This document shows, piece after piece, positions 1 to 24,902 of a DNA stretch of 64,000 nt (position 1 is its first letter; every line of letters starts with the position of its first letter). The notes beneath the pieces were generated by a model. It saw nothing but the letters and a program-made list of their open reading frames with translations, was not told the origin of the DNA and did no database searches. Made by a program: the position numbers and the translations under genes. This DNA is from Planctomycetes bacterium UBA1146 (lineage in GTDB: Bacteria; Planctomycetota; UBA8108), in the NCBI GenBank assembly GCA_963579555.1, contig CAUZHA010000002.1, positions 4,307 to 68,306 of the forward strand, in the 5' to 3' direction.

Positions 1-1
1 C

Positions 2-907
2 GGCAGAACGGTGGCGGAGCTTGTCGTTAAAACGCCATCGGCCATGAAGCTCTCGCTTCAGCCCGCCTCCGGTGAAAACAGGATGGGGAATATGGCCGCG
101 CTGCGGAAATCTTTCTACGATTTCTATTCCAGGATGAAGGCTATCCAGGGGTCCGGCGGCGAGGCTCCGTTGATTGAAAAGACGAAGCTCTCCCTGACCG
201 ACCTGGTAAATACCCGTCCAGGCTGGGGAGAGATTGACTGGAAGAAGGTGCCGTCCGAAAAGGTCAGCGAGCGAGACCGGCCCATGCGAGACCTGGTGAG
301 GGGAAAGCTCCGCGCCTTTATCAACTGCCCGACCGCTTCCGATGTTTTCAAGGCTTTCGAGCTTATCGATGCCAACCATCTTGACGCGACGCTCGTGCTC
401 GGGCCGGACGCCTGGAAGCTTGCCGACATCCTGGCGGCTCGCAAGGGCCTCGGTCCTGTGATTATCAATTCGCAGCTTGAGGTTTGGGACAAGAATGATG
501 AGACCGGAGAGGAGAAGCGGCACATCACTCCCATCCTCCTTCACAAGGCTGGAGTTCCCTTCGTCCTGCAGGTGCTCTCCGATTCGAATTTCAATAAAGG
601 CCCCTACTTCGGGCGCAGCGGTCCCTACCATCACTGGTACCAGGCCGCGCGGCTGGTTCAGTTCGGTATGCCCAGGGACAAGGCCCTCGAAACCATCACG
701 ATCATTCCCGCCAGGCTCATCGGCATTGACAACCGTGTCGGCTCCATAGAGGCCGGCAAGGATGCGAACATCGCCATCTTCTCAGGTGATCCGCTCGATG
801 CCCGCAGCTGGGTTGAACGAGTCTTCATCGAGGGCAAGGAGGTCTATGAACGCAGCAAGGATCGTGACCTCGAGCGGTTGCTCAAGGATCCGGAGAGGTC
901 GTTCTGA
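2..907 (+). CDS. Amidohydrolase family protein, C-terminal portion (5' end lies outside window)
   Basis: Open frame runs to base 2 with no upstream stop. C-terminal motif GSIEAGKDANIAIFSGDPLD matches the tail of the downstream amidohydrolase paralogs. Length 298 aa versus about 420-470 aa for the paralogs implies truncation by the window edge. Confidence 0.6.
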   Translation, partial: GRTVAELVVKTPSAMKLSLQPASGENRMGNMAALRKSFYDFYSRMKAIQGSGGEAPLIEKTKLSLTDLVNTRPGWGEIDWKKVPSEKVSERDRPMRDLVRGKLRAFINCPTASDVFKAFELIDANHLDATLVLGPDAWKLADILAARKGLGPVIINSQLEVWDKNDETGEEKRHITPILLHKAGVPFVLQVLSDSNFNKGPYFGRSGPYHHWYQAARLVQFGMPRDKALETITIIPARLIGIDNRVGSIEAGKDANIAIFSGDPLDARSWVERVFIEGKEVYERSKDRDLERLLKDPERSF

Positions 908-945
908 AGCGCCTGTCCGGGAATAGAAAAACCAGGGAAAGAAAA

Positions 946-3489
946 ATGCAGAGACCCGTACATCCACGAGAGCTGAGCCCGGCAAGGGGCCGCGTAAGCG
1001 GCGCCCGGCGTATGGCTGCCTGGTGCCTGCTCGTCGTATTCGCGGCGCTTTTGCCGGCCGTTCTTCGTGCCGGAGAGGGAGCCCCGCCGCGCACCTTTGC
1101 CCTGCGCGGCGCGACGGTCTACACCGTCTCAGGGGAGATTTATGTGAACTCGAACCTGGTTGTCGAAGACGGCAGGATCAAGGCTGTTGGAAAAGATGTG
1201 AAAATCCCCGCCGGGATAAAGACCCATGACCTGCATGGCTACGTGGTTATGCCGGGTCTTCTTGACGCCGAGACCAACCTCGCCAGCGACAATAGGGAGA
1301 CGCTCGGGAGCCTGTCTCCCCAGGTCCAGGCGCTCGATGGTTGGGATTTTTATCGTGAAAACCGCGAGCTGCTCAAAGGCGGGGTGACCTCGGTCTACCT
1401 GGCGCCGGGAGTTCCAGTTGGGAAGACGAGAACGAGGCTGATTTCGGGGCAGGGAGCCGTGGTCAAGACCGCCGGCTTCAAGGCCAATCCCAGGATGCGA
1501 GTTGTTGCGGAATCGAGTGGTTTCCAGGTCACTCTTGGAGAGCTCTCCCGTATCCAGCCTTCGATCTACTCCCCTCCGATCGGGGCCTCACCGGACAATC
1601 CGTTCGAGGTGCTTGTGCCGCCGTTGCCCCAGTCCCGTGCCGGGGAGTTTCTTGCTCTCAGGCAGGTGATCTCCAGGGCCCGCGGATACCGCGATTCACT
1701 TGCCGGCCACCTGCGAGATGGAACCTCCCGACCGGCCTACGATCCCATCTCTGCGAGCCTCTACCCTGTTATAGCCGGTGGCGATCATCTCCGTGTGCGG
1801 GCCAATAAGGCGAGAGACATCTATCATATCCTCGAGCTTGCCCGCGAGGCTGGCATCAAGGTGGTGATCGAGGGGGGGGCCGAGGCCGAGAAGCTTACGT
1901 CCTGGCTTGCCAGGATGAAGGTCCCTGTGATTTTCCCCGGGGCGTTTCAGTCCGGCAAGCTGCCCGGGGGAGATCTGCAGAGTCCAGCCATCGAGGGCCG
2001 GCTCCAGGAGGAGTCCATCTTGAGGATGCATCGCGCCGGAGTCCAGGTGATACTTAACAGTCCTACCGATGCCGAGGGGAAGAACCTCCTCCTGCAGGCC
2101 GCCGCGGCGGTAAGAGTTGGAATGGAACCCCACGAGGCCCTGCGGACGATCACTCTGAATCCCGCGCGGGTCCTCGGGGTGGCTGACCGCATTGGCAGTA
2201 TCTCCGAGGGTAAAGACGCGGACCTGGTCGTACTCGGCGGTGACCCGCTGGGTGCCGACAACCATGTACAGGCCGTGTTCATCAATGGCGAGCTGGTGTT
2301 CAACCGGGCCCCTCCGATCACAGAAGATTGCACGGTCATTCGTGCCGGACGTCTCGTCATTGGCAGCGGCGCGGAGTATTCCAACGGCATCGTGATCGTC
2401 AGGAAAGGCAAGATCGAGTACGCTGGTCCCGGCCTGCTTCATGACGGAATGGACAAGGCTGTACGGGTTATCGACGCGTCTTCCCAGACGGTCATTCCCG
2501 GCCTGATCGATGCGGGTGGGACCGTCGGTTCTCGCGCCGAGTCCCTCGTGCCGGGCTTCGATGCGGCTCCCGGCAGCGCGGGGGCGGGGAAGGCAGCCGA
2601 TTTCAGGCTCGTCGACTCGATCGATCCGCGTGACCCCGCGTTGATGGAGCTGGTCCGAGCCGGAATTACGACGGCGCTGATAGCACCTCCGGTCGCCGGA
2701 CAGGTTTCCGCCCTGAAGCTTGCGGCCAATGATCCTGCAGCCGCGGTGATCAAGCCCTACGCTGCGCAGTATTTCTCCAATTCATCGAGCAAAACCCTCA
2801 AGGCCGCCAAGGCCTACCATGACAGCTGGGTAGCGTTTGAGAAGAAGAAGGAGGCGGCGGAGAAAAAAGGCGCTGAATTCAAGGACAAGGCACCCAAGCT
2901 CCAGGAAGCCTATGAGCCTTACAGGGCGCTTTTCACGGGCGCGGTTCCGGCGCTGGTCGAGGCGCCCAATGCCGCATCTATTCCCGCCATCGTCGCGCTC
3001 TACACCGACCAGTATAAAATCCGGGTTCTCTGCAGCGGTCTCGCTTCGCTGAAAAGAGATGAGAACCTCGCCGAGATGGCCGGCCTGCTCCTTGCCAAGA
3101 CGGGGGGGCTTGTCCTGCAGAATCCACTGGTCGTCAAGCAGGGCAACAAGACGGTTAACTGGCCTCAGCGGTTGAGCGCTCTCGGTGTCAGCTTCTCAGT
3201 TCGTTCCCGAGTCGCCGATGGAGCCAGGCTCTTGCCCCTGCAGGTGTCCTACGCTGTTCGAGAAGGCTGGAATTCACGGCTTGCCCTGCGCTCGATGACC
3301 ACCGTGCCCGCGGAGCAGTTCGGGATCTCCGACCGGGTGGGCAGCATCGAGAAGGGCAAGGATGCGGATCTCGTCATTCTTTCCGGCGAGCCCTTCTCAC
3401 TAACGTCCAGGGTTCTTGGAGTGATGGTCGATGGGAAGCTGGTGCATGGAGTCGATAAATTCAAAGAACAGGTAGATGCAAATGAATAG
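946..3489 (+). CDS. Secreted tandem-domain amidohydrolase family protein (two amidohydrolase-like modules)
   Basis: 847 aa with an N-terminal signal peptide (LLVVFAALLPAVLRAGEG). Two amidohydrolase C-terminal signatures: GSISEGKDADLVVLGGDPLG and GSIEKGKDADLVILSGEP. The positions where the HxH metal motif is expected read PGLLDAETN and PGLIDAGGT, so both modules lack HxH. Confidence 0.75.
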   Translation: MQRPVHPRELSPARGRVSGARRMAAWCLLVVFAALLPAVLRAGEGAPPRTFALRGATVYTVSGEIYVNSNLVVEDGRIKAVGKDVKIPAGIKTHDLHGYVVMPGLLDAETNLASDNRETLGSLSPQVQALDGWDFYRENRELLKGGVTSVYLAPGVPVGKTRTRLISGQGAVVKTAGFKANPRMRVVAESSGFQVTLGELSRIQPSIYSPPIGASPDNPFEVLVPPLPQSRAGEFLALRQVISRARGYRDSLAGHLRDGTSRPAYDPISASLYPVIAGGDHLRVRANKARDIYHILELAREAGIKVVIEGGAEAEKLTSWLARMKVPVIFPGAFQSGKLPGGDLQSPAIEGRLQEESILRMHRAGVQVILNSPTDAEGKNLLLQAAAAVRVGMEPHEALRTITLNPARVLGVADRIGSISEGKDADLVVLGGDPLGADNHVQAVFINGELVFNRAPPITEDCTVIRAGRLVIGSGAEYSNGIVIVRKGKIEYAGPGLLHDGMDKAVRVIDASSQTVIPGLIDAGGTVGSRAESLVPGFDAAPGSAGAGKAADFRLVDSIDPRDPALMELVRAGITTALIAPPVAGQVSALKLAANDPAAAVIKPYAAQYFSNSSSKTLKAAKAYHDSWVAFEKKKEAAEKKGAEFKDKAPKLQEAYEPYRALFTGAVPALVEAPNAASIPAIVALYTDQYKIRVLCSGLASLKRDENLAEMAGLLLAKTGGLVLQNPLVVKQGNKTVNWPQRLSALGVSFSVRSRVADGARLLPLQVSYAVREGWNSRLALRSMTTVPAEQFGISDRVGSIEKGKDADLVILSGEPFSLTSRVLGVMVDGKLVHGVDKFKEQVDANE

Positions 3490-4732
3490 ATCCTGGAAGG
3501 CTGCCATACTTCTGCTCGCGGTGAGTTTTCTCGCCCGGTCGCTTTATTGCGAAGACGGCATCTCTGCGCAGCGGTGGGCCATTCGAGGCGGCAAGATCGT
3601 CACCGTGACAAAGGGAGTTGTCGAGGGAGGAGTCCTGCTCGTCTCAGGCGGTCGCATCGAAAAGATTATCGCGGCGCCCGCATCGGACTGGAAGCCCCCG
3701 GCGGGCTACCAGCTTATCGATGCCAGCGGGCGTTGGATCGTCCCCGGCTTTGTGGAGCTCCACTCGCATATCGCAGGCGGCGACCTCAACGATATGGTCT
3801 ACTCGGTGAACCCGGGCTTCAGGACGCTCGACAACATCATGCCCCGCAACGCCCTGCTCAAGAGAGCCCAGGCCGGCGGGGTGACCACGGCGCTCTTCAT
3901 TCCCGGCAGCGGTACGAATATGGGAGGCTTTGGCACCCTGATCAAGACCGCGGGGAAGGATCTCAGTGAGATGCTCATACGTTTCCCCGGCGCCCTGAAG
4001 ATCGCCCAGGGAGGCAATCCCGAGCGGCGTGGAGGCGATCTCGGCTATTCCAGGATCGGCATGAACTGGTTGATCCGTAACGCCCTGAAGGAGGGCAAGC
4101 TCTATACCGAGGCCTGGGATGCGTGGGAGGCTGACAAAACGAAAAAGAAGCCGGTCAAGAATCCCCGCCTGGAAATGTTCCGCGGACTGTTTCACAAGGA
4201 GTACCCGGTCGTGGTTCATACCCAGGGATATCAGCTCATCCTTTCGACCATCAGGCTCCTGCATGACGAGATGGGACTCTGGGTCGTTATAGATCACGGC
4301 ACCTTTGATGGCTTCGAGCTGGCTCCGGAGGTTGCGAAGCGCGGCATCCAGGTGATGAATGGCCCCCGACAGTTCCGCTGGGACAATCGCCGCGGAGGTT
4401 TCCGGGGTCTCGCCTACGAATGGTATCGCGGTGGAATCAAGACGGTTGGCGTCAACACCGACGCTCCCGTGGTTCCCGCGGAGGAGCTCATCTACCAGGC
4501 GGCCATGGCCGTACGCCTGGGGCTCAAGGAAGATGTGGCCCTCGCGGGTATCACCATCCATGCCGCCCGGGCCCTTGGAGTGGAAAAGAGAATCGGAAGC
4601 CTCGAGGCCGGCAAGGATGCGGATATCGTCATCTGGACAGGTGACCCACTCGATCCGCGCCAGTCGGTGGTGCTGACGATGGTGAATGGAAAGATAGCCT
4701 ACGACACGAGCAAGGAGCCCCAGCGTTTCTGA
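3476..4732 (+). CDS. Secreted amidohydrolase (canonical metal-binding HxH retained)
   Basis: Signal peptide present. N-terminal PGFVELHSHIAGG carries the HxH motif, and the C-terminal GSLEAGKDADIVIWTGDPLD signature is present. Overlaps the upstream gene by 14 nt, consistent with an operon. Confidence 0.8.
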   Translation: MQMNRSWKAAILLLAVSFLARSLYCEDGISAQRWAIRGGKIVTVTKGVVEGGVLLVSGGRIEKIIAAPASDWKPPAGYQLIDASGRWIVPGFVELHSHIAGGDLNDMVYSVNPGFRTLDNIMPRNALLKRAQAGGVTTALFIPGSGTNMGGFGTLIKTAGKDLSEMLIRFPGALKIAQGGNPERRGGDLGYSRIGMNWLIRNALKEGKLYTEAWDAWEADKTKKKPVKNPRLEMFRGLFHKEYPVVVHTQGYQLILSTIRLLHDEMGLWVVIDHGTFDGFELAPEVAKRGIQVMNGPRQFRWDNRRGGFRGLAYEWYRGGIKTVGVNTDAPVVPAEELIYQAAMAVRLGLKEDVALAGITIHAARALGVEKRIGSLEAGKDADIVIWTGDPLDPRQSVVLTMVNGKIAYDTSKEPQRF

Positions 4733-4754
4733 GGCCGCTGGAGCGGAGTCTGTT

Positions 4755-6158
4755 ATGAGATTAAAGATGTACCAGGATCAAGACAATCGCGGGCGCGGCC
4801 GAGCGCGGATCGCCCGGCTGCTTCTGCCGGTGCTGCTCGCTGTTCTCAGTCCCGCCGTGGCGGCGGGCGAGGAGGTGGTGGCCTATCGAGCCGGGAAGAT
4901 CATTCGCTCCGCCGGGGAGGCGGCCGCTCCCGGGATCCTGATCGTTCGTGACGGCAAGATTGAAGATGTGCTTGCCGCGGGCGCGAAGACCCCGGAGGGA
5001 GCGAAGGTCGTCGAGCTGCCAGGGGCGGTCGTTCTTCCAGGCCTGGTGAATCCTCTCAGCGGGATCAGCCAGGTGAACTTCACCTCGGGCCCGGGAAGAG
5101 CCTCCCAGTCGAACTCGTCTCCCACCGATGGACGCAAGGCTGTCGGCCTGTCGTCTCTGAACCTGAAGCACGAGGTCTACAGGCGTCTTGGACGAACCGG
5201 CTATACCACCTTCGCGGTGGTTCCCAACGATACCCGGGGACTCATCGCCGGCCAGGCCTCCGTTATCAGGCCCGCCCTTGGTAAGGAGAAGGATCCCGGG
5301 GAGCTGGTCCTGGAAAAATCGGCCTATCTCCTGCTGGGCTTTTCCTCCGGAAAGGCCTGGCATGATGCCGGCCTTCGCTACCTGAAAAAGGCGGTTGACG
5401 ATATTCTCAAGGAGAAGGCGGCGAAGAAGAAGGCTGAGGAGGACGCGCGCAAGAAAGCCGAGGCAGCCAAGAAAAAGGCCTCCCAACCGTCAACAGGAGA
5501 GAAGAAACCAGCTCCCGCTCCCCCGCCGGCCAAGCCTGCCGCGGCCAAGCCGCCGGCCAAGCCCAAGGCTCCGGATCCCCTGGTCCAGCTTTTCAAGGGT
5601 GAGAAGAAGGCCTTTGTCAGGGTGACGAGCCCGGCCGCCCTCGCTCATTTCTTCGTCTTCTTTGACAAGCTGCCGATCAAATTCCAGTTTGTCCTGGTGA
5701 CAGGTCCGCAGCCTCCGGAGGTCGTCGAGATGCTCATCGAGCGCAGGAAGCAGATCACGGCCGTTATCCTGGAGCCTCGCATGGGACGGATCCCGGAGAC
5801 GAGTATCTATGTCAACACAGCGAGGTTGTTCCTTCGCAGCGGTATGCCGGTGGCTTTTGTTCCCCTGAGGGACACCATCGATGGACACCGGGAGATCTTC
5901 TTTCAGCTTGCCGCGATGGTCAAGTCGGGGGTCCTTCCCCATGAGGCTCTTGCGGGCGTGACCTCGGTTCCCGCTGACATTGTTGGCCTTGGCGCGAAGG
6001 TGGGCAGCCTCAAAAAGGGAGGTCTGGCCAATTTTGCCTGCTATGACAGGGATCCCCTCTCAGGGACAGCCAGGCTGCTCGCGGTTTATGTCGAGGGCCG
6101 GAAAGTTTTCGAGGATGATCCTTCTACCGGAGAGTTGAGCGGGGAGGCGATTCGATGA
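4755..6158 (+). CDS. Amidohydrolase-like protein with internal Lys/Pro/Ala-rich linker
   Basis: Signal peptide present. PGLVNPLSGIS stands in place of the HxH motif. Contains a low-complexity KKKAEEDARKKAEAAKKKASQPSTGEKKPAPAPPPAKPAAAKPPAKPKAP linker. The C-terminal domain is related to the neighbouring paralogs (KVGSLKKGGLANFACYD). Confidence 0.65.
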   Translation: MRLKMYQDQDNRGRGRARIARLLLPVLLAVLSPAVAAGEEVVAYRAGKIIRSAGEAAAPGILIVRDGKIEDVLAAGAKTPEGAKVVELPGAVVLPGLVNPLSGISQVNFTSGPGRASQSNSSPTDGRKAVGLSSLNLKHEVYRRLGRTGYTTFAVVPNDTRGLIAGQASVIRPALGKEKDPGELVLEKSAYLLLGFSSGKAWHDAGLRYLKKAVDDILKEKAAKKKAEEDARKKAEAAKKKASQPSTGEKKPAPAPPPAKPAAAKPPAKPKAPDPLVQLFKGEKKAFVRVTSPAALAHFFVFFDKLPIKFQFVLVTGPQPPEVVEMLIERRKQITAVILEPRMGRIPETSIYVNTARLFLRSGMPVAFVPLRDTIDGHREIFFQLAAMVKSGVLPHEALAGVTSVPADIVGLGAKVGSLKKGGLANFACYDRDPLSGTARLLAVYVEGRKVFEDDPSTGELSGEAIR

Positions 6159-7450
6159 CCATTAGAACACGCGAGCCGGCCGTACTACTTTCTCTCGTCC
6201 TGTCAGCGTTTTTCTGCGCCTTGCTTGGCGCTGAGGAGACCAAGGAAAAAGAGAAGAAGCCCGTCGTCCAGGCGGTCGTCGGCGCCACCGTTCTGCCGGT
6301 CTCCGGCCCCATGGTGCGCCGAGGCACCGTGATCTGGAAGGATGGAAAAATCCTCGAGGTTGCGGCCGAGCTCGCAGCGCCGGAAGGCGCCCGGGTTCAT
6401 GACGCTGAGGGCCTGTATGTTTGTCCGGGCTTTGTCTCTGTAGTCGCCATGGGGGTGGGGATCGAGACCAGCTCGGGCAATATCGGCAATGGTCTGAATC
6501 CCTGGGATCGTGAGCTTACGATAGCCCTCGCCAATGGAATCACGACGATGCAGGTGCTTCCAGCCCCGTTCTTTGGCGGCTTCGGACAGGATGGTCCACT
6601 TCGCGGCGGCAGCAATTCAGCGATTATCAAGCTCACCCAGGGTGACCTGGGGGGGATGCTGGTGAAGGAACCGGCGATGAACTATTTCTCGTTACCCACT
6701 CGCCAGCTGGAGCTTAACTATTTTCTTTTGAGAGAGCGCTTCAAGCAGGCAAAGGCCTATCTCGCCAAGCGAGCCGAGGCCCGGGCGAAGAAGGCCACCG
6801 AACCGAAGCTCATCTCGAGCCTCAAGCTCTATGTGAGTGTTCTGGAAAATACCCGCCCGACGGTTTTTTCTCCGGCCAATAACCACGAGGTGAAGATCGT
6901 TCTCTCCCTCAGCAGGGAGTACGGTTTTGACGCCGTACTCAACGAGCCCAAGGACGCCTGGATGATGGCGGCGGACCTGGCGGTCGCGAACGTGCCGGTG
7001 CTGGTCAAGTCACGTGGCCCCGATTTCGATTTCAACACTACCGGGCCCCTGTTTGAAAAAGGCCAGATGGCTCCCGTTCGTCGTCCTGCAGCCTTTGTCC
7101 GGGCCGGGTGCCAGGTCTCGATTCTTCCCTATCGCCGCGGGATCAGCCTGGCGGGTCTTGCCGGGCGCGACCTGGGCACCCTGCATATGGACGCGGCCTT
7201 TGCCGTACGCGGCGGAATGTCGAATGAAGACGCCCTGAAGGCCATCACCCTGAACCCTGCCCGCACGCTTCGTGTGGATGACCGGCTGGGTAGTCTTGAA
7301 AAAGGAAAAGACGCCGACCTGCTGATCCTGAGTGGACATCCGCTTGATTACCGAAGCTTCGTCCTCAAGGCCTTCATCAACGGCAAGCTCTACTATGATC
7401 GTGAAAAGTCGAGGATCTACCGCGAGATCCCGCTGACCGGAGAGAAGTAG
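6155..7450 (+). CDS. Secreted amidohydrolase family protein (HxH absent)
   Basis: Signal peptide present. PGFVSVVAMGVG stands at the expected HxH position. C-terminal GSLEKGKDADLLILSGHPLD signature. 4-nt overlap with the upstream gene. Confidence 0.75.
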   Translation: MTIRTREPAVLLSLVLSAFFCALLGAEETKEKEKKPVVQAVVGATVLPVSGPMVRRGTVIWKDGKILEVAAELAAPEGARVHDAEGLYVCPGFVSVVAMGVGIETSSGNIGNGLNPWDRELTIALANGITTMQVLPAPFFGGFGQDGPLRGGSNSAIIKLTQGDLGGMLVKEPAMNYFSLPTRQLELNYFLLRERFKQAKAYLAKRAEARAKKATEPKLISSLKLYVSVLENTRPTVFSPANNHEVKIVLSLSREYGFDAVLNEPKDAWMMAADLAVANVPVLVKSRGPDFDFNTTGPLFEKGQMAPVRRPAAFVRAGCQVSILPYRRGISLAGLAGRDLGTLHMDAAFAVRGGMSNEDALKAITLNPARTLRVDDRLGSLEKGKDADLLILSGHPLDYRSFVLKAFINGKLYYDREKSRIYREIPLTGEK

Positions 7451-7504
7451 AGCAATCTTCACCGAAGGGCTTTTCGAGGGGCGTTTTAGCGGTAGAATCC
7501 GGCT

Positions 7505-9034
7505 ATGTCGCCTTCTCTCCTGAAGCTCAAATTCGCGGTGTCTGTTGCGCTCGCGGCCGGGATGATCTTCCTCTCCTCCTGCGGGAAGGATCCGGTCGCG
7601 CTCGAACAGGCGGCGACTCCCGAGAAGAGGGTGGAGACCTTCTGCTCTGCCTGCCATCTCCTGCCTCCTCCGGCAACGCTCCCGCGCGGGATGTGGGAAC
7701 GCAAGATCGATGAGATGTACGAGCTGGCCAGGGGGTCGCAGAAAGAGCTGCCGGCCGGGTTGCCGCCGCGAGGGGAGGTGATCACCTATTTCACCAGCCG
7801 CGCGCCAGAGGGACTGCCGGGTCTCTCCCATACGGTCGGCAGGAGGAGTCCCGTCCTCGGCTTCGATCCCATCGGGGTTCGCATCGGCGGGCTCGAATCT
7901 TATCCCGGCGTCTCCAGCGTTCGGCTTGTCAACCTGTCGAGTGTGGATCGCTTTGATCTGCTGATCTGCGAGATGCGCTTCGGCCTGGTGCTGGCGGCGC
8001 GACCTGATCTCGAGCCTCTCGATATACGTGTACTTGGCCGTTGCGACAATCCCTGCACCGCTGAGGTTGTTGACCTCGACCGGGACGGGCACCGTGACCT
8101 GCTCGTCGCGGACCTGGGAACAAGAACGCCGTCTGATGTCAAAAATGGCAAGGTGCTCTGGTTTCGCGGTGATGCGAAGGGGGAGTTCGACGTCATTCCA
8201 CTGGCCAGCGGCCTCGGGCGGGTAGCTCATTGCCAGGCGGCCGATTTTGATGGTGACGGCGATCTCGACATCGTCGTGGCGGTTTTCGGCTGGCGTAAGG
8301 TCGGGAACATCCTGCTTCTTGAAAATGAGACCTCAGATTTTTCTTCTCCCCGGTTCGTGCCGTATGTTCTCGATCCGCGCCCTGGAGCGATCCATGTTCC
8401 TGTTGTGGATCTTGACGGGGATGGTGACCAGGATTTTGTCGCCCTGATATCGCAGCACCATGAGATGATCGTCGCCTTTCTTAACGATGGCAGCGGGGGC
8501 TTCAGGAAGGAGACTGTTTTTCGGGCGCCGCATCCGAACTGGGGATCGACTGGTATCCAGCTGGTCGATATGGACAGGGATGGCGATCTTGACGTCCTCT
8601 CCAGCAATGGCGACAGCCTGGATGATTTTATTCCGAAGCCCTATCACGGCATCCAATGGCATGAGAACGACGGCAGCTATCCATTCCGGGTTCATCCGCT
8701 GACCAATCTCTACGGCTGCAACGCGGCGAAGGCCGCTGATATCGATGGAGACGGGGACGTGGATATCTTCGCCAGTGTCTTCCTGCCCTACATCAGGAAG
8801 GAAACTCCCGGCTCGGAGTTCACCGAGTCGCTGATCTGGCTGGAGCAGGTTGAGCCGGGGCGTTTCGAGCGTTACTCGCTGGAAAAGATGGCCTGCTTCC
8901 ATCCAACGCTTGACCTCGGTGATTTCGACAATGATGGCGACATGGATTTCGTGGTTGGAAATATGACCATGGCCAGGCGCAAGGAGGACACCCTGGCGTA
9001 TTGGGCCGTGCTGTGGAAGAACACGCGTCGCTGA
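7505..9034 (+). CDS. FG-GAP/VCBS-repeat lipoprotein with N-terminal CxxCH heme-binding-type motif
   Basis: Lipoprotein signal (LSSCGK). CSACH motif near the N-terminus. Six Asp-rich FG-GAP-like repeats (DLDRDGHRDLLVAD, DFDGDGDLDIVVA, DLDGDGDQDFVAL, DMDRDGDLDVLSS, DIDGDGDVDIFAS, DFDNDGDMDFVVG). Confidence 0.7.
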   Translation: MSPSLLKLKFAVSVALAAGMIFLSSCGKDPVALEQAATPEKRVETFCSACHLLPPPATLPRGMWERKIDEMYELARGSQKELPAGLPPRGEVITYFTSRAPEGLPGLSHTVGRRSPVLGFDPIGVRIGGLESYPGVSSVRLVNLSSVDRFDLLICEMRFGLVLAARPDLEPLDIRVLGRCDNPCTAEVVDLDRDGHRDLLVADLGTRTPSDVKNGKVLWFRGDAKGEFDVIPLASGLGRVAHCQAADFDGDGDLDIVVAVFGWRKVGNILLLENETSDFSSPRFVPYVLDPRPGAIHVPVVDLDGDGDQDFVALISQHHEMIVAFLNDGSGGFRKETVFRAPHPNWGSTGIQLVDMDRDGDLDVLSSNGDSLDDFIPKPYHGIQWHENDGSYPFRVHPLTNLYGCNAAKAADIDGDGDVDIFASVFLPYIRKETPGSEFTESLIWLEQVEPGRFERYSLEKMACFHPTLDLGDFDNDGDMDFVVGNMTMARRKEDTLAYWAVLWKNTRR

Positions 9035-9052
9035 GAGGTCTGCGGGGCTGTC

Positions 9053-9439
9053 TCAGGCCGACTTGAGGTTCCTCACCCTGAGCCGGTTGTGGAGACTGGA
9101 GCCAAGCTCCTTGAGCGAGCTCCTGATTATTCTTGATATGGCGACGGCGGACTCGAGGCGTCTTGAGTCCAGGAGAAGTCGATTCTCGTAGTCGTCAAAT
9201 TCGACAAGGCGGGCCTCGGGCCAGGGGGCGGCTATCTTTGCGAGGCCTGCCGCCCGACCTGTCTTTGCGGATTTCTTGATTGCTGGCCAGAAGCTCATCA
9301 CGGCCTCGTTCTGATTGAAGAATATTCTACCGCTCAGGTGACAGACTTTGTCACTAATGACAAATCCGGGCGCGCCAGGTGTCGTTCTTTGCTCGCGGAT
9401 CGGTTGGCTTAAGGGTTTATGTTCTTTCGGAGTAAGCAC
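9053..9439 (-). CDS. Hypothetical protein
   Basis: 128-aa ORF convergent with the FG-GAP gene. Amino-acid composition is plausible but no motif was recognised. Confidence 0.35.
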   Translation of the reverse strand: MLTPKEHKPLSQPIREQRTTPGAPGFVISDKVCHLSGRIFFNQNEAVMSFWPAIKKSAKTGRAAGLAKIAAPWPEARLVEFDDYENRLLLDSRRLESAVAISRIIRSSLKELGSSLHNRLRVRNLKSA

Positions 9440-9615
9440 TTGTGATTATTAAACAGGTTGGCACGGGACTTGATCTGTATTCCGAGGGGAAGCAGTGTAG
9501 ATAGCCGGTAATGATCAGAGAAATTGTCGAGGTAGAGTGGTTGCCAGGATCAGCGTTTGGACAAAATGAGGATTCACGCCCTGCGGCGGGTCCCTACGGA
9601 TTCGAGGTTCTCTCT

Positions 9616-9996
9616 ATGGAGGATGCTTGCGTCCGCACCGATGAGACGCGGGAGCGCGGCTTCAGCCTGCTCGAGGTCGCCTTGTCGACGGTGATTCTCG
9701 GCGCGGTGCTCATCGGTACGCTCGGCTCGCTTTCAGTTGCGGCCATCGGCCAGCGTCACGATGGGTCGAGGGTGGAGAGCCAGCTGCTGCTGTCTCGTGT
9801 CATGGAGGAGCTCCGAGCCACGGCGTTCAATTCACTGGTGAGCTATGATGGGACCTGGATCGAGGAGGGCCGGCATCGAGCCGACATCAATGTCTCTCCC
9901 CGCGGCCCCGGCCTGCTCAAGCTCTCAGTGAGGGTTTGGCAGCTGGAAAATGAGGAGATCGAGACACGCGGGGTCCTGCTGGTTACGAGCCCCTAG
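9616..9996 (+). CDS. Prepilin-type N-terminal cleavage/methylation domain protein (pseudopilin-like)
   Basis: A start at the internal ATG gives a 15-aa leader MEDACVRTDETRERG, followed by FSLLEVALSTVILGAVLIG. This fits the G-F-[ST]-L-[LI]-E prepilin signature with a hydrophobic helix. Confidence 0.55.
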   Translation: MEDACVRTDETRERGFSLLEVALSTVILGAVLIGTLGSLSVAAIGQRHDGSRVESQLLLSRVMEELRATAFNSLVSYDGTWIEEGRHRADINVSPRGPGLLKLSVRVWQLENEEIETRGVLLVTSP

Positions 9997-10009
9997 GAGC
10001 TTTTTTCTG

Positions 10010-10636
10010 ATGAACACAACTCTACGACAATTCAGATCTCCTTCAGCACCCGGCGCTCATCCTTCCGAGGCGGGCTTTACGCTGGTGGAGGTTTCCGTCG
10101 CGGTGGCCGTGGGGGCGCTCTGTATGATGGTACTCGGCCAGGCGCTCTCGAGCGCGGCGGGTTCGAGCGAGTCCATCGTTCGCCAGGCTGAAATGCTCAA
10201 CGGAGTCCAGAGGTGTATGGAGGATCTGCGCAAGGAGCTGCGCTGCGCGAGCGCCGACCTGGCGGAAATATCCGGCTCGGATGGAAATGATGTCCTGGTG
10301 CTCAAGACCAGCGGTTCTTTTTCCGACGGCTTTCGTTGGGGTGCCTGCGACGAGACGGGCGTCTGGCAGGCGGGCTGGTCAGCGCGCTTTCGCGTTGTTG
10401 ACGGCCACCTGGTGCGTGAGGCGCTTGATATTGCCGGGCGCGTCAGGGGAGAGGCCCGGTTGCTGGTGAGGGGAGTGGCTGCAGAGGGGGGTGACGAAAA
10501 GGGCTTCTCGGTTGAGAAGACCGGCTCTCTTTTCAATGTGGAGCTCAGGTTGCTGAGGAGATTTCGCAACGGGACGGAGCTGCGGCGTGTTTTTTCGACA
10601 TCGGTTAAATCCTTGCCCGGCCTTCTTGGAGGCTGA
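10010..10636 (+). CDS. Prepilin-type N-terminal cleavage/methylation domain protein (pseudopilin-like)
   Basis: Leader MNTTLRQFRSPSAPGAHPSEAG, followed by FTLVEVSVAVAVGALCMMVLG. Start chosen at the ATG at 10010 inside the longer ORF. Confidence 0.55.
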   Translation: MNTTLRQFRSPSAPGAHPSEAGFTLVEVSVAVAVGALCMMVLGQALSSAAGSSESIVRQAEMLNGVQRCMEDLRKELRCASADLAEISGSDGNDVLVLKTSGSFSDGFRWGACDETGVWQAGWSARFRVVDGHLVREALDIAGRVRGEARLLVRGVAAEGGDEKGFSVEKTGSLFNVELRLLRRFRNGTELRRVFSTSVKSLPGLLGG

Positions 10637-12633
10637 TGGCCGGCCGCGCGACAAGAGGTCCGGAGGAGTTGATTCCAGTGTTACGAGATACTAAAGATTA
10701 CCAGGGTGCGAGCACGAGCGAAGCGGGCTATTTCAGCCTGCTGCTCGTTGTTGGCGTGTCGCTGATCGCCACCGCCGTATTGACCGCGACGGCTACGATG
10801 GCCACATCGACACGAGATGTTCGCCGCAGGGGGAACCTCGCCGCCGCCCGCCTGGCGGCCCGGTCGGGAATTGCCGAACAGGTTGCTGATATTGTCGCTG
10901 TACGTGACATGGCCCCGGTCGGCGAGCCCTTCAGCGGCCTGGACAGCATTGACAGGAACCAGCTCCAGGGGCCGGGAGGCTTCACGGCTACGGTTACCGG
11001 CAGGTTCCTGGATGATCACGAGGGAACGCCGGTTGCCCAGTACGATGTCTTTGTCGATTCGCTGGCGGGCTCCTCGATCTCCCGCCGCCTGGCGATCTCT
11101 TCTTACGCCTACGTCCCTGGCAAGGCGGCTTACGATTCGGGGGATCCGGATGCCGCCAGGGCGGATGCCCACGCCGTGGTAGAGGTTCGTTTCCAGGGCA
11201 GCGAGGTCTTTGACTATTCGTATTTCATCAATCACTGGGGCTGGTTCTTTGGCGATGATATCGCTTCCAACGGTAACGTTCGCTCCAACGGCCAGTTTGA
11301 TTTCGGACATCACAGCTCCGCCGTCAATGGTAGCCCGCGATACGAGGCTTCCCATGGCTCCCAGCTGCTGGGGTACATTGATGACAATGGTGATGGCGTC
11401 AAGGATGGAAGCGATGGGGGAGTTTATTCCTCCGTCTCCGTCATGAACGCCGACAATGTAAATGGGAGCGCCGGGGTGTCGAGCAATCGTCACGTAACCC
11501 CTGAAGTGGTCGAGATGCCGAATCTGGACAATCTCTCTTTTTACGAACAGAAAGCTGTTGCCCGCAACTCCAGTATTGGTGTGGCGGGGTCTTTTGAGGT
11601 AGACGGCGTTCTTGGTGATGGCGACACAGAGCCGCAAAACCTCTACCTGGTTGGAACGCGAGAGGCACCAGTTGTTCTCAACGGTCCGGTGGTGGTTCGG
11701 GGGAGCGTCATTATCTCAGGCTACGTAAGCGGGCAGGGCTCCATCTACGCCGGCGGCAATATCTACGTTGCCGACGATCTGCTCTATCTGAACCCGCCCG
11801 ACAGCATTCGTCCGGATTCGAATGACCAGCAGAGTGTGGAGAGATGGCGGTCTGAATCCGCCGCACGGGACTCGCTGGGTCTCTTCGCAAGGGAACATAT
11901 CGTGGTGGGCGATTATACCGATGATTGGTGGCAGACAAATGTTTCCGACTGGGTCAACCACGATCTGAATAAATCCCGCGAAGATGCCGGCAGCGATGGA
12001 ATCCAGAATACCCGCGAGGGCCCCGATGGCATCCTGGGCACCGCGGACGATGATTTTATGGAGGATGATGGAGTCTGGACCGTGAACCACTACACCGAGG
12101 AAGATGCCGAGAGAGGGCTGATTCCCGAGGGCAGCAGGCCTGGCGATGTCATCCCCGGCAGCGGGGAGGATATCGATGGAGATGGTCGGTATGACGACAC
12201 CACCAGGATGTCGGAGTTTGATCTTCCCCAGGCGCTCTCACAGGAGGCCTGGGGCGGCAATCTCCAGGAGGGCGAGGATCTCACCTATTCGCAGGTCGCC
12301 ACGTCCGAGATCGGGCGTCTCGATGCGGCCTTCTACACCAACCACACCTTTGCGGCAGTGGTTTCGAATCCTAATGGGGTTATCCAGGTGAACGGCGCGG
12401 TTGTTTCCCGTAATGAATCGATCATCTATGCAGCAGATGGACTGGAGCTGAATCACGATGAGAGGCTCACCGGCAGGGGAAACCAGCAGAGTGGTTTTGA
12501 TAGTCCTCTCGGCTGGGATCCGGTCAGGTTTATCCACTGGGATTTTGACAAGCTTCTCCCGGCGGAGATTGTCACTTCTACAGAGAGGATCGCCGACTAT
12601 CTTGGCGGCATTTCAGGCGGAGGAGGAGAATGA
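10636..12633 (+). CDS. Large secreted Asp/Gly-rich protein with pilin-like N-terminal hydrophobic segment
   Basis: 665 aa. The N-terminus SEAGYFSLLLVVGVSLIATAVL resembles a pseudopilin anchor but lacks the conserved Glu at +5. Many DG/DD-rich stretches suggest calcium binding. Start overlaps the stop of the previous gene. Confidence 0.5.
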   Translation: MAGRATRGPEELIPVLRDTKDYQGASTSEAGYFSLLLVVGVSLIATAVLTATATMATSTRDVRRRGNLAAARLAARSGIAEQVADIVAVRDMAPVGEPFSGLDSIDRNQLQGPGGFTATVTGRFLDDHEGTPVAQYDVFVDSLAGSSISRRLAISSYAYVPGKAAYDSGDPDAARADAHAVVEVRFQGSEVFDYSYFINHWGWFFGDDIASNGNVRSNGQFDFGHHSSAVNGSPRYEASHGSQLLGYIDDNGDGVKDGSDGGVYSSVSVMNADNVNGSAGVSSNRHVTPEVVEMPNLDNLSFYEQKAVARNSSIGVAGSFEVDGVLGDGDTEPQNLYLVGTREAPVVLNGPVVVRGSVIISGYVSGQGSIYAGGNIYVADDLLYLNPPDSIRPDSNDQQSVERWRSESAARDSLGLFAREHIVVGDYTDDWWQTNVSDWVNHDLNKSREDAGSDGIQNTREGPDGILGTADDDFMEDDGVWTVNHYTEEDAERGLIPEGSRPGDVIPGSGEDIDGDGRYDDTTRMSEFDLPQALSQEAWGGNLQEGEDLTYSQVATSEIGRLDAAFYTNHTFAAVVSNPNGVIQVNGAVVSRNESIIYAADGLELNHDERLTGRGNQQSGFDSPLGWDPVRFIHWDFDKLLPAEIVTSTERIADYLGGISGGGGE

Positions 12634-13148
12634 TGCGGGTGCTCAGGCTGTTTGCTTTCCTGGTTGTGATCGGAATATTCGTGCCGTCCTCGGCGGGAGC
12701 CGGAGAAAAATTACTCCAGCCCAGCTCCGGCAGGAAGGCCACCCCCACGGCGGGGGTCAGGCATCTCTTCATCAACAAGACGGCTATCGCTGAGCGTGCC
12801 GAGGCCCGGCGGAAGGCTCTTCCATCTCAGGGGAACCCGAACGCGGGCCGTGGATTCCTCCTCGAGAAGGCCCAGGGAGGGCATGGTACCGACAGGCTCT
12901 CAATGGCGAAGCTGCGTCATCGGCAGCTCGAGGGCTATAGGCGCCGGGAGATGACTTCTGCCTCGCCCGCGGACCTTGCCGGGAAGCGAGAGGCTCAGGC
13001 GAGTGGAGCATCAGTGAAGAAGGAGTCTGGAGGCGGCTATTCCGCGATCGCCTGCGCCTTCGGCGCCCTGGCAGCCGCGGTCTTCGTGGTATCGCTCAGG
13101 CGCAGGGGACGTCGAGAGGGTGAAAAGAAAAAAGCGCGCAGGTTCTGA
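12630..13148 (+). CDS. Secreted protein with C-terminal hydrophobic anchor and basic tail
   Basis: Signal peptide (LFAFLVVIGIFVPSSAGA). C-terminal GGYSAIACAFGALAAAVFVVSLRRRGRREGEKKKARRF. 4-nt overlap with the upstream gene. Confidence 0.45.
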   Translation: MMRVLRLFAFLVVIGIFVPSSAGAGEKLLQPSSGRKATPTAGVRHLFINKTAIAERAEARRKALPSQGNPNAGRGFLLEKAQGGHGTDRLSMAKLRHRQLEGYRRREMTSASPADLAGKREAQASGASVKKESGGGYSAIACAFGALAAAVFVVSLRRRGRREGEKKKARRF

Positions 13149-13194
13149 GCGAACCGGCGCGCTTATCCGCCAGGAAGGGGTCTGCGTGGAAGCC

Positions 13195-13446
13195 TTACTT
13201 GAGCTTCGCGAGGACCTTCTGGGCGTTTCGGGGAATCTTCGGCGCTTCAACCTTGCCGAACTCCGACAGCTTGTATTCAAAGTGAAAGGCCGCGTGCTCA
13301 CCGCCGATGATCTTATTGCCTTTGCGGCGGGTCTTTCCTTTGCGGCCCGTCAGCGCGGTAACCTTGATACGGATGGGAAGTGAGGTTTCGGGATCAATCT
13401 CGATTTCATAGAAGGCGTTGGTCATTGTCTTGTCCGCACCGGACAC
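13195..13446 (-). CDS. Small hypothetical ORF, same frame as and 5 codons downstream of the lipoprotein TGA
   Basis: GTG/ATG-initiated ORF (…MTNAFYEIEIDPETSLPIRIKV…). It may be an independent small gene or a continuation of the upstream ORF through the TGA. Confidence 0.3.
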   Translation of the reverse strand: MSGADKTMTNAFYEIEIDPETSLPIRIKVTALTGRKGKTRRKGNKIIGGEHAAFHFEYKLSEFGKVEAPKIPRNAQKVLAKLK

Positions 13447-13461
13447 GAATTCGGAAACCGT

Positions 13462-14118
13462 TCAGCCGCCGCCGAGACAGCCGGATTTTTCGACTGTCAG
13501 GTAGTGATCGAGAGCCTCCCTGGTCGGGGTTTCGACGAGCATGATGGTCGGCATGATGGCTTCGGCCTCTTTGCCCGGGAGGCGCTTCTTTGAAACAACC
13601 GTTCTGCCGCTCTCATCGAGCTCGATTTCCTCGGCCGGCTTCGCCGGGTTTGCCTCGGCTGCAGCCTGTTCAGCGTCGAGCCACCTTCCGCTTCTTTTTG
13701 CGTGGCGCAGCGCCCGTTTGAGAACCTCCTGGGGGAAATTAAAGAAGGTCTGGAGCTTCCTGCCTTGCGGATCAGAGTAGATGTTTCTCCACGCACCCTC
13801 GAAAAAGCGAACACCCTTCCTGGGAGTCTTGTAGGACTCCGCCGCCGAGATGTGGATCAGCCCCTTGTAGATGTCTCCCTGGTAGCTTTCCTTGACCGCG
13901 AATTGGTGGATCTTGTGATCCTTGGTGTTGGAAAGTCCGCCCTGGACGGTGAGGGTTGTTTTGAAGCCCTTGATCTTTGAGAGGTTTTTCGCGGCCTTCG
14001 CCAACTGCGAATAGGGAGAGGGAATCTTCTTCTTGGAAGAATCTCCTGCGAAGAGAAGTCCCGTACAGGCGGTCATTAGCGCCACGGGTAGCAGGATCCT
14101 GGTAAAGAGTGATCTCAT
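13462..14118 (-). CDS. Putative lipoprotein (ends at TGA, see findings)
   Basis: Lipoprotein-type signal (LLPVALMTACTG). 218 aa. Terminates ...HYLTVEKSGCLGGG followed by TGA. Confidence 0.55.
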   Translation of the reverse strand: MRSLFTRILLPVALMTACTGLLFAGDSSKKKIPSPYSQLAKAAKNLSKIKGFKTTLTVQGGLSNTKDHKIHQFAVKESYQGDIYKGLIHISAAESYKTPRKGVRFFEGAWRNIYSDPQGRKLQTFFNFPQEVLKRALRHAKRSGRWLDAEQAAAEANPAKPAEEIELDESGRTVVSKKRLPGKEAEAIMPTIMLVETPTREALDHYLTVEKSGCLGGG

Positions 14119-14276
14119 GATGTCACCTTTCTATAGGGGGCGATTTATGTTCACTGGTTTCCGGTTAAGCAGGTCTTTTGGCCACACGGAAATTGTATTT
14201 TCCTTCTGGCCGGTGAAACAAGAATATTCTCTATTGCGTGACGCAACAGGCCCGTCACAAAACTGATTAAGTCGTT

Positions 14277-24734: not shown

Positions 24735-24902
24735 GAGAAGCGGCGCCTGGCGGTCACAAGTGGATTGCGAATCGTCCTGCTGGAAAATAAAATGATCTGA
24801 AAGAAGTTTCAGCGGGGAGGACGAACCACGCGATGTGATTTGAGCTTTCCGGATGATCTAATACTGACCCACACGGTCTCTCCTGAATCGTCAACACCAT
24901 CC

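Follow-up and report, generated by a model that had tools for sequence, protein, structure and literature searches.

A planctomycete array of exported amidohydrolase paralogs in which one module class retains the metal site

Genes and modules of the array

The 64,000-nucleotide (nt) stretch of DNA analyzed here, referred to as the window, comes from Planctomycetes bacterium UBA1146 (GCA_963579555.1, contig CAUZHA010000002.1, positions 4,307 to 68,306 of the forward strand). It begins with five consecutive, co-directional genes (G1 to G5, 2-7450) that encode amidohydrolase-like modules. We find that the window start cuts the array, and that 2-7450 is the downstream (3′) two-thirds of a self-contained nine-module operon of a marine Planctomycetota genome. 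The full order is A1~A2~A3, B (G1), C1~C2 (G2), D (G3), E (G4), and F (G5), where a tilde marks modules fused in one chain. Class D alone is fully liganded (CAT in the architectures below); the other eight classes are degenerate (deg). The array genes in the window, all on the forward strand, are:

2-907, forward strand: G1, 301 amino acids (aa), C-terminal part of a class B module, degenerate; the N-terminus lies outside the window
946-3489, forward strand: G2, 847 aa, two degenerate modules (C1~C2) with an N-terminal signal peptide
946-2328, forward strand: module C1 (G2a), aa 1-461 of G2, degenerate
2329-3489, forward strand: module C2 (G2b), aa 462-847 of G2, degenerate, internal
3476-4732, forward strand: G3, 418 aa, class D, signal peptide; predicted to be the sole catalytically competent module
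4755-6158, forward strand: G4, 467 aa, class E, degenerate, signal peptide, insert rich in Lys, Pro, and Ala (K/P/A-rich)
6155-7450, forward strand: G5, 431 aa, class F, degenerate, signal peptide; last gene of the array

The original prediction, made from the sequence of the window, described five genes with overlaps of 4-14 nt that encode six modules. The open reading frames (ORFs) are confirmed, with overlaps of 14 nt between G2 and G3 and of 4 nt (ATGA) between G4 and G5; the remaining gaps are 38 and 22 nt. The count of six modules is right for the window and incomplete for the array, which has nine in close relatives. G2 contains two PG-x-x and two GSI..GKDAD motifs and thus two complete modules, with a boundary near aa 461/462. 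In paralog alignments the six modules of the window are mutually about 25-30% identical over most of their length. Four genes (G1, G2, G3, and G5) exceed the Pfam gathering thresholds of both Amidohydro_1 (PF01979) and Amidohydro_3 (PF07969), with Amidohydro_1 scores of 112.9 bits in two stretches for G2 and 44.5 bits for G5; the matches of G1 run through the C-terminal part. G4 is below both cut-offs (25.7 versus 29.7 bits for Amidohydro_1 and 19.9 versus 25 for Amidohydro_3), yet its AlphaFold2 (AF2) model has the fold.

The N-termini of G2, G3, G4, and G5 are basic and then hydrophobic, typical of Sec signal peptides; these and all signal peptides mentioned here were called by a crude N-terminal hydrophobicity heuristic, not by SignalP. 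A signal peptide had been proposed for every module. This is correct for the four genes just named, G1 begins outside the window (its ortholog has a signal peptide), and the internal module C2 has none. The proposed C-terminal signature, GS[IL]E[AK]GKDAD, is exact only in G2b, G3, and G5, with variants in G1 (GSIEAGKDAN), G2a (GSISEGKDAD), and G4 (GSLKKGGLAN). The motif sits C-terminally, in the stretch aligned to the end of the Pfam models. We take it to be part of the beta-sandwich and not of the active site, so its retention would speak for the fold rather than for catalysis.

The part of the array upstream of the window is available from relatives. A genome scan identified four marine Planctomycetota contigs from metagenome-assembled genomes (MAGs; L001-L004) with 94-96% protein identity to the window genes; none of their array reading frames is disrupted. 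L002 and L003 have a complete G1 ortholog (443 aa, with a signal peptide) upstream of the G2 ortholog; the L002 copy (8631-9962) is 95% identical to G1 and has the strand-1 motif PGIVDAHSV, with a single His. Further upstream in both contigs is a gene of 1343-1353 aa with the three modules A1~A2~A3, and before that a divergent transketolase gene. Module A2 of the window lineage contains PGFIDAHSH, while the strand-5, -6, and -8 ligands are absent; this HSH is limited to the window lineage.

The binuclear metal site

G3 has the six ligands of a binuclear metal center. They are H96 and H98 (the HxH of strand 1; codons 3761-3763 and 3767-3769), K175 (strand 4; 3998-4000), H248 (strand 5; 4217-4219), H274 (strand 6; 4295-4297), and D329 (strand 8; 4460-4462). 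The strand-4 Lys is carboxylated in this type of amidohydrolase enzyme. All six align with those of PDB entry 3OOQ (phmmer E 1.4e-48), and they are invariant, together with many nearby residues, in 32 orthologs that are 51-88% identical to G3. That the gene at 3476-4732 is the only one in the window to keep HxH had been predicted; the retention of the whole ligand set goes beyond this.

None of the other modules has a comparable site. The strand-1 motifs noted originally are all present at their places: ELHSHIAGG in G3, PGLLDAETN and PGLIDAGGT in G2, PGLVNPLSG in G4, and PGFVSVVAM in G5. An invariant PG before strand 1 anchors the HxH position, which reads E/N in G2a, G/T in G2b, L/G in G4, and V/M in G5. 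Over all six ligand positions the residues are E,N,Q,R,G,P in C1; G,T,Y,E,S,R in C2; L,G,L,R,T,L in G4; and V,M,Y,S,E,Y in G5. The class B module of L002 reads H,V,K,N,L,L and keeps one His and the Lys. Outside G3, His at both strand 5 and strand 6 was found in none of the modules that were profile-aligned. The complete binuclear ligand set is thus found in G3 alone and not in G1, G2a, G2b, G4, G5, or A1-A3 of L002.

Since only D has a binuclear metal site, we predict that D can hydrolyze a substrate. The other eight modules lost their metal site long ago and persist as eight distinct orthologous classes. The former ligand positions vary freely among orthologs in seven of the eight degenerate classes, which argues against a replacement catalytic site. 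The exception is class B, where an H-x-K-Y-L pattern occupies these positions in most genomes. No second conserved motif was seen in the ortholog ligand maps of the degenerate modules. It had been suggested that the modules without HxH are non-catalytic or use a different chemistry. The first option agrees with the absence of the ligands and the second is disfavored, as orthologs, outside class B, do not share the residues at the ligand positions. Profile alignment does not recover the full ligand set in these modules, and Pfam, paralog alignments, AF2, and Foldseek agree on a single fold.

Fold and closest structure

All modules share one fold, the superfamily's (beta/alpha)8 barrel with a composite beta-sandwich, and belong to a 3OOQ-type branch of amidohydrolases. 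For G2 and G4, the AF2 models have a predicted local distance difference test (pLDDT) score of 84.3 and 83.9 and a predicted template modeling (pTM) score of 0.78 and 0.81, respectively. Foldseek matched both models to amidohydrolase structures only. The best match was 3OOQ for G2 (E 1e-33, TM-score 0.86; next match 1e-16) and for G4 (E 3.8e-22, TM-score 0.73; next match 1e-12). By sequence, the runner-up to 3OOQ is at 7.6e-12 for G3 and at 1e-7 for G5 (3OOQ at 1.3e-28 over aa 43-417), and both proteins align to 3OOQ over nearly their full length. A G2 profile built from 51 orthologs matches 3OOQ at 1.3e-86 versus 1.3e-24 for the runner-up. The pTM of the two-module G2 model implies that the predicted contact between C1 and C2 is defined and confidently placed.

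We found no Pfam or NCBIfam model dedicated to this subfamily, and an NCBIfam scan of the array genes gave no model near its cut-off. Two enzyme identities were considered and rejected. The Xaa-Pro dipeptidase / Lys-Arg carboxypeptidase model (NF051886, Caulobacter) gives 65 bits for G3 and 119 bits for G2 versus a cut-off of 500, and the imidazolonepropionase HutI model (TIGR01224) gives 54.4 and 84.3 bits versus 298. No hut genes were seen beside the array in the loci examined. With both thresholds missed, the automatic JGI name of homologs, “imidazolonepropionase-like amidohydrolase”, is not a functional assignment. Automatic annotation labels the family “amidohydrolase” or “imidazolonepropionase-like”, though most members cannot bind metal, and pipelines that count these genes as hydrolases would overstate catalytic capacity about nine-fold at this locus.

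Conservation of the array

The order of the nine classes is the same in L002-L004 and in four distant loci: L005 (the cultured isolate “Planctomycetaceae bacterium SH139”, complete genome), L006 (a Gemmataceae MAG whose contig ends after D), L007 (a 4.3-Mb assembled contig), and L008 (a MAG labeled Myxococcota). The class profile hidden Markov models were trained on L002 and L005-L008, so that assigning classes within L002-L008 is circular or, as for L003 and L004 (both close to L002), nearly circular; only the class calls for L011-L032 are independent. In BLAST, the best L002 match of a protein is its positional counterpart in nearly all cases, with exceptions for E and some A modules. The G3 homologs in L005, L006, and L007 are only 50-55% identical to G3. 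D is the most conserved module, at 50-55% identity between distant genomes versus 25-36% for the others.

A metagenome scan with the D profile returned 80 loci, 22 of which contain a clear D ortholog (38-54% identity to G3), and all 22 show pieces of the same order; none of the 22 had served to train the class models. The original prediction had proposed to look for the array in related genomes; the same nine classes in the same order are indeed found in distant genomes and in these metagenome contigs. Across arrays, the ligand positions of D are HHKHHD in all genomes, and the remaining eight classes are degenerate without exception. The degenerate classes co-occur all-or-none in a fixed order, and no true D ortholog without the array was seen wherever flanking DNA was available. 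D is duplicated in L008, with both copies fully liganded. Four consecutive, fully liganded D-type genes are present in the otherwise canonical array of L028 (LWDU01040821.1, locus at about 10001-15000), which suggests that the catalytic subunit was amplified or diversified there while the degenerate set stayed constant.

In the window, L005, L007, and L008, neighboring genes overlap or abut at their stop and start codons. Fusion of the A modules varies: the window lineage has A1~A2~A3 in one chain, SH139 and the Gemmataceae MAG join A1~A2, and L007 keeps the three apart. C1 and C2 are usually fused and are separate in L021. Every separate array gene in five genomes has a hydrophobic N-terminus. 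With a Sec-type signal peptide of its own on every chain, the products are predicted to work outside the cytoplasm.

The long linker rich in Lys, Pro, and Ala that had been noted in one paralog is at aa 219-275 of G4 (nt 5409-5579), between barrel strands 4 and 5. In the AF2 model the Lys-rich part of this insert is predicted to form a helix of 42 residues (aa 200-241), and the Pro/Ala/Lys stretch behind it (aa 243-274) is disordered. Comparable inserts, rich in Lys, Glu, Pro, and Ala (K/E/P/A-rich), typically occupy this position in classes A1, C2, and E, and D has none; their composition is conserved across orthologs and their sequence is not. Two C-termini are also retained among orthologs. 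Class E (G4, 6113-6158) keeps a tail DDPxTGxLSGEA[VI]R-COOH, with G4 ending in SGEAIR, and class D (G3, 4721-4729) a nearly invariant RRF-COOH. These extreme C-termini may be subunit contacts or active-site plugs.

The ratio of nonsynonymous to synonymous substitution rates (dN/dS) against L002-L004 is 0.10-0.18 for G1, 0.10-0.13 for G2, 0.10-0.14 for G3, 0.10-0.12 for G4, and 0.16-0.19 for G5. In the window lineage the degenerate genes are constrained like the catalytic gene and are not decaying duplicates. The earlier view that the array is not simple redundancy is well founded, given this purifying selection (dN/dS 0.10-0.19 overall) and the positional orthologs in the same order across distant genomes.

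Relatives outside the array

Most D-like genes at 31-37% identity to G3 stand alone and have a full ligand set, and they score lower for crude N-terminal hydrophobicity, as does 3OOQ itself. Intermediate forms include triads of deg, CAT, and deg genes (L071, L082), a five-module array with two catalytic modules in an Acidobacteriota genome (L009), and a deg~CAT fusion in a Cytophagaceae genome (L010). An exhaustive search with G5 points to a large family: at E<=1e-30 it identified 257 cluster representatives, and at E<=1e-10 the number rose to 2712. Architectures were counted for the 149 best G5-like representatives:

single degenerate module: 64
deg~CAT~deg, 1300-1500 aa: 34
CAT~deg: 22
deg~deg: 12
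deg~CAT: 10
deg~deg~deg: 5
single catalytic module: 1

Active and inactive modules are therefore found in one chain in 66 of these 149. Judged by these architectures, covalent pairing of active and inactive modules is common in the subfamily and not specific to planctomycetes.

The Streptomyces proteins P0218, P0220, and P0230, and likewise P0224/P0225 (about 1000-1130 aa), have amidohydrolase modules fused to Tricorn_N/DPPIV_N/PD40 beta-propellers. These Tricorn-like fusions are weak matches to the C-terminal motif of G2; they are a separate architecture and link the broader family to peptide processing.

Gene neighborhood

In SH139 (L005) a Tricorn protease gene comes after the array. The other array flanks are unrelated to one another and include transketolase, an ECF sigma factor, RecQ, LAB_N, Glycos_transf_3, and methylmalonyl-CoA mutase. 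The stand-alone relatives adjoin Tex, TsaB/RimI, Lon, an Opp ATPase, or GGT. We considered neighbors as a clue to the substrate and rejected this approach, as they are inconsistent between loci and give no signal beyond a weak lean to peptide metabolism. A Glycos_transf_3 gene (anthranilate phosphoribosyltransferase/thymidine phosphorylase-like) follows F in L008, L028, and L031, with an AhpC/TSA gene in between in L008; these three are the arrays with at least two D copies whose downstream flank was examined. A gene with a lipid A biosynthesis N-terminal domain (LAB_N) follows the array in L007 and L014. The Glycos_transf_3 and LAB_N associations are both lineage-specific.

In the window, the gene after the array (7505-9034, forward strand) encodes a secreted protein of 509 aa with FG-GAP/VCBS repeats (Pfam FG-GAP_3, 118.7 bits). 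Only 54 nt, without a terminator-like site, separate it from G5, and it may be co-transcribed with the array in the window lineage. The gene is kept downstream in L002-L004 (dN/dS about 0.15) and absent from distant arrays. We rejected it as an array member, since it is conserved in close relatives only. A scan of window positions 1-9600 identified no sigma-70 sites, and terminator-like sites were at chance level. Many long ORFs on the reverse strand or in alternative frames are antisense to or overlap the array genes within 124-8902, for example 3644-4561 (305 aa) and 7010-8230 (406 aa); we do not count them as genes, and they are expected at about 60% G+C.

Further along the window are the following features:

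9511-9996 and 9950-10636, forward strand: small proteins with prepilin-type N-terminal methylation motifs (N_methyl), followed by a 665-aa protein without a Pfam match; the group spans 9511-12633 and resembles a cluster for pseudopilins or type IV pilin-like proteins
14277-19604, reverse strand: 1775-aa protein with the unusual architecture of a PQQ_2/BamB-like beta-propeller, Methyltransf_11, Laminin_G_3, and malectin
24840-26858 and 26837-28447: planctomycete-specific pair of PSCyt1/PSD2-5 with DUF1552
28470-29939 and 29970-33698, reverse strand: planctomycete-specific pair of DUF1501 with PSCyt1/PSCyt2/PSD1

The PSCyt/PSD gene pairs confirm the phylum.

Proposed function and alternatives

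We favor, with a probability of roughly 0.55, the reading that the array encodes a Sec-exported, periplasmic, hetero-oligomeric hydrolase with one catalytic class and eight degenerate scaffold paralogs. The nine modules would assemble in the periplasm into a hetero-oligomer that evolved from a homo-oligomer of stand-alone relatives such as 3OOQ. D, present as one to four copies or isoforms depending on the lineage, would perform the chemistry; the eight degenerate paralogs would be scaffold, substrate-capture, or gating subunits, and the K/E/P/A-rich arms of A1, C2, and E may be flexible tethers. The fixed order, all-or-none co-occurrence, stop/start overlaps, varying fusions, deg~CAT~deg chains, and the homo-oligomeric state of 3OOQ make a multi-subunit complex, as the original prediction had suggested, more likely. 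For the chemistry, analogy with COG1228 enzymes (aminoacylases, ochratoxinase, prolidases, and the Cc2672 carboxypeptidase) weakly suggests that the likeliest reaction cleaves an amide bond and frees the C-terminal amino acid of a peptide or N-acyl amino acid. We note beside it the Tricorn protease gene after the SH139 array and the Tricorn-like propellers of the Streptomyces relatives.

Several observations weigh against a hetero-oligomeric hydrolase. D copies vary (1, 2, or 4) and module totals range from 9 to at least 11, so one fixed stoichiometry, such as a strict decamer, misfits some arrays. Class E is poorly conserved, and in two genomes its BLAST best match in L002 is B, not E. Separately exported chains would have to find their partners in the periplasm, and fusion of neighboring genes is weaker evidence than fusion of distant genes. 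No conserved neighbor gene of the arrays was found in the loci examined. The substrate guess is drawn only from distant relatives, and the NCBIfam prolidase and HutI models are far under their cut-offs.

A narrower and tentative version, which we consider possible but doubtful, is that the products form one defined periplasmic particle derived from a 3OOQ-type dihedral homo-decamer, with eight fixed pseudo-positions, exchangeable catalytic D isoforms in what remains (one in Planctomycetota, two to four elsewhere), and K/E/P/A-rich arms for tethering or gating. If true, it would have, to our knowledge, the highest ratio of pseudo-subunits to active subunits of any metabolic hydrolase. Module counts that fit a decamer (10 modules in L008 and L031, 5 x2 in Acidobacteriota, 2 x5 in Cytophagaceae, and the 10 chains of 3OOQ) were rejected as a firm claim, because the arrays of planctomycetes comprise 9 modules and the flank fetched for L028 contains at least 11.

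It is unlikely that the degenerate modules are a diversified set of independent, non-interacting periplasmic binding proteins that bind ligands in the old barrel pocket and perhaps pass substrates on to D or transporters. All genes have signal peptides of their own, the barrel is retained with high model confidence in G2 and G4, and the lineage variation in D copies and module totals fits loose cooperation more easily; the Acidobacteriota version is also beside a TonB-dependent receptor and the Cytophagaceae version beside an amino-acid permease. However, the former metal-site residues are not conserved among orthologs except in class B, which argues against a conserved ligand pocket there, and catalytic and degenerate modules are very often in one chain, with the eight classes present all-or-none in a fixed order. 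The strong conservation of D bears on a quite unlikely option, a mainly structural or cell-envelope role in which the fold is reused as a building block (as in CRMP/DPYSL), the K/P/A-rich arms anchor it to the wall or membrane, and catalysis by D is secondary. Eight of the nine modules are non-catalytic, the inserts of A1, C2, and E are conserved in composition, and the array is conserved across distant Planctomycetota with no conserved metabolic neighbor, all of which would suit such a role. Yet D is the most conserved module, with its six ligands and many nearby residues invariant, so that catalysis appears to be most strongly selected, and D is also the module that is amplified (1-4 copies).

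We consider it very unlikely that the degenerate modules are enzymes with another chemistry, metal-independent or mononuclear, in a multi-step pathway. The H-x-K-Y-L pattern of class B in most genomes and the HSH kept in A2 of one lineage speak for such enzymes, but the ligand positions vary freely in seven of eight classes, none has both the strand-5 and the strand-6 His, a second conserved motif was not seen, and the HSH of A2 is specific to the window lineage. Simple redundancy, in which recent tandem duplicates are mostly decaying, is contradicted and has next to no probability. The tandem, co-directional genes with a common C-terminal motif look like duplicates of this kind, but the paralogs are only about 25-30% identical, positional orthologs exist in genomes whose D is only 50-55% identical, dN/dS is 0.10-0.19 for all genes, and the frames are intact in L001-L004.

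We found no description in the full-text literature of a conserved array of eight distinct pseudo-paralogs and one active paralog. If the modules of this array assemble as we propose, they would offer a clear example from nature of an enzyme that went from a homo-oligomer to an obligate hetero-oligomer made almost wholly of pseudoenzymes. This would be open to direct test, since strain SH139, a cultured isolate whose genome is complete, carries the array.

Comparison with known systems

The closest structure, and the best match of every module tested, is 3OOQ, a structural-genomics entry for an amidohydrolase from Thermotoga maritima MSB8. It has the subfamily motifs GS..N..GG.G and K.A.GENP.R in common with the array modules. 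It differs in being one gene product that forms a homo-oligomer (10 chains, dihedral), with an aligned chain that starts without a signal peptide and no degenerate paralogs in the same chain. In the full texts searched it appears in a docking benchmark that cites its dihedral symmetry, and no other use is mentioned.

Metallo-bile-salt hydrolases of Bilophila wadsworthia (BwBSH) are Sec-exported, metal-dependent amidohydrolases with two or three tandem paralogs (PMC13081902). Their metal-ligand residues are conserved and required for activity, the 945-aa chain has other C-terminal domains, the genes adjoin a type II secretion system, and the description includes no degenerate partners (PMC13081902). 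Because BwBSH ligands are conserved and needed, that system is not the same thing as the array.

COG1228 enzymes of the same superfamily include the Cc2672 Lys/Arg carboxypeptidase (3MTW), the prolidase Sgx9260b (3FEQ/3N2C), the ochratoxin amidohydrolase ADH3 (8IHQ), and aminoacylases. They have a binuclear center with a carboxylated Lys, hydrolyze amides with release of a C-terminal amino acid, and crystallize as large homo-oligomers with 8-16 chains per entry; they are the next-best fold matches of G2 and G4. They are much more distant than 3OOQ, sequence matches cover only the C-terminal ~90 residues, and each has one active subunit type.

Amidohydrolase-fold pseudoenzymes include CRMP/DPYSL and PyrC′, the inactive dihydroorotase-like chain of Pseudomonas aspartate transcarbamoylase. 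Like the degenerate modules, these have the amidohydrolase fold and lost the metal ligands, and they are kept for oligomer assembly or structure. They differ in that there is one pseudoenzyme type, cytoplasmic or eukaryotic, without an active partner of the same subfamily, whereas the array has eight distinct pseudo-classes with one active class, all with export signals.

The beta ring of the eukaryotic 20S proteasome has an unrelated fold, is cytoplasmic, and has a demonstrated assembly, while the one we propose is predicted. Its logic is like that proposed for the array, with one fold in many fixed paralogous positions and a minority of them catalytic. If the proposal is true, the array, conserved across the sampled distant Planctomycetota and relatives, would be an exported bacterial counterpart of the proteasome-style evolution from homo- to hetero-oligomer.

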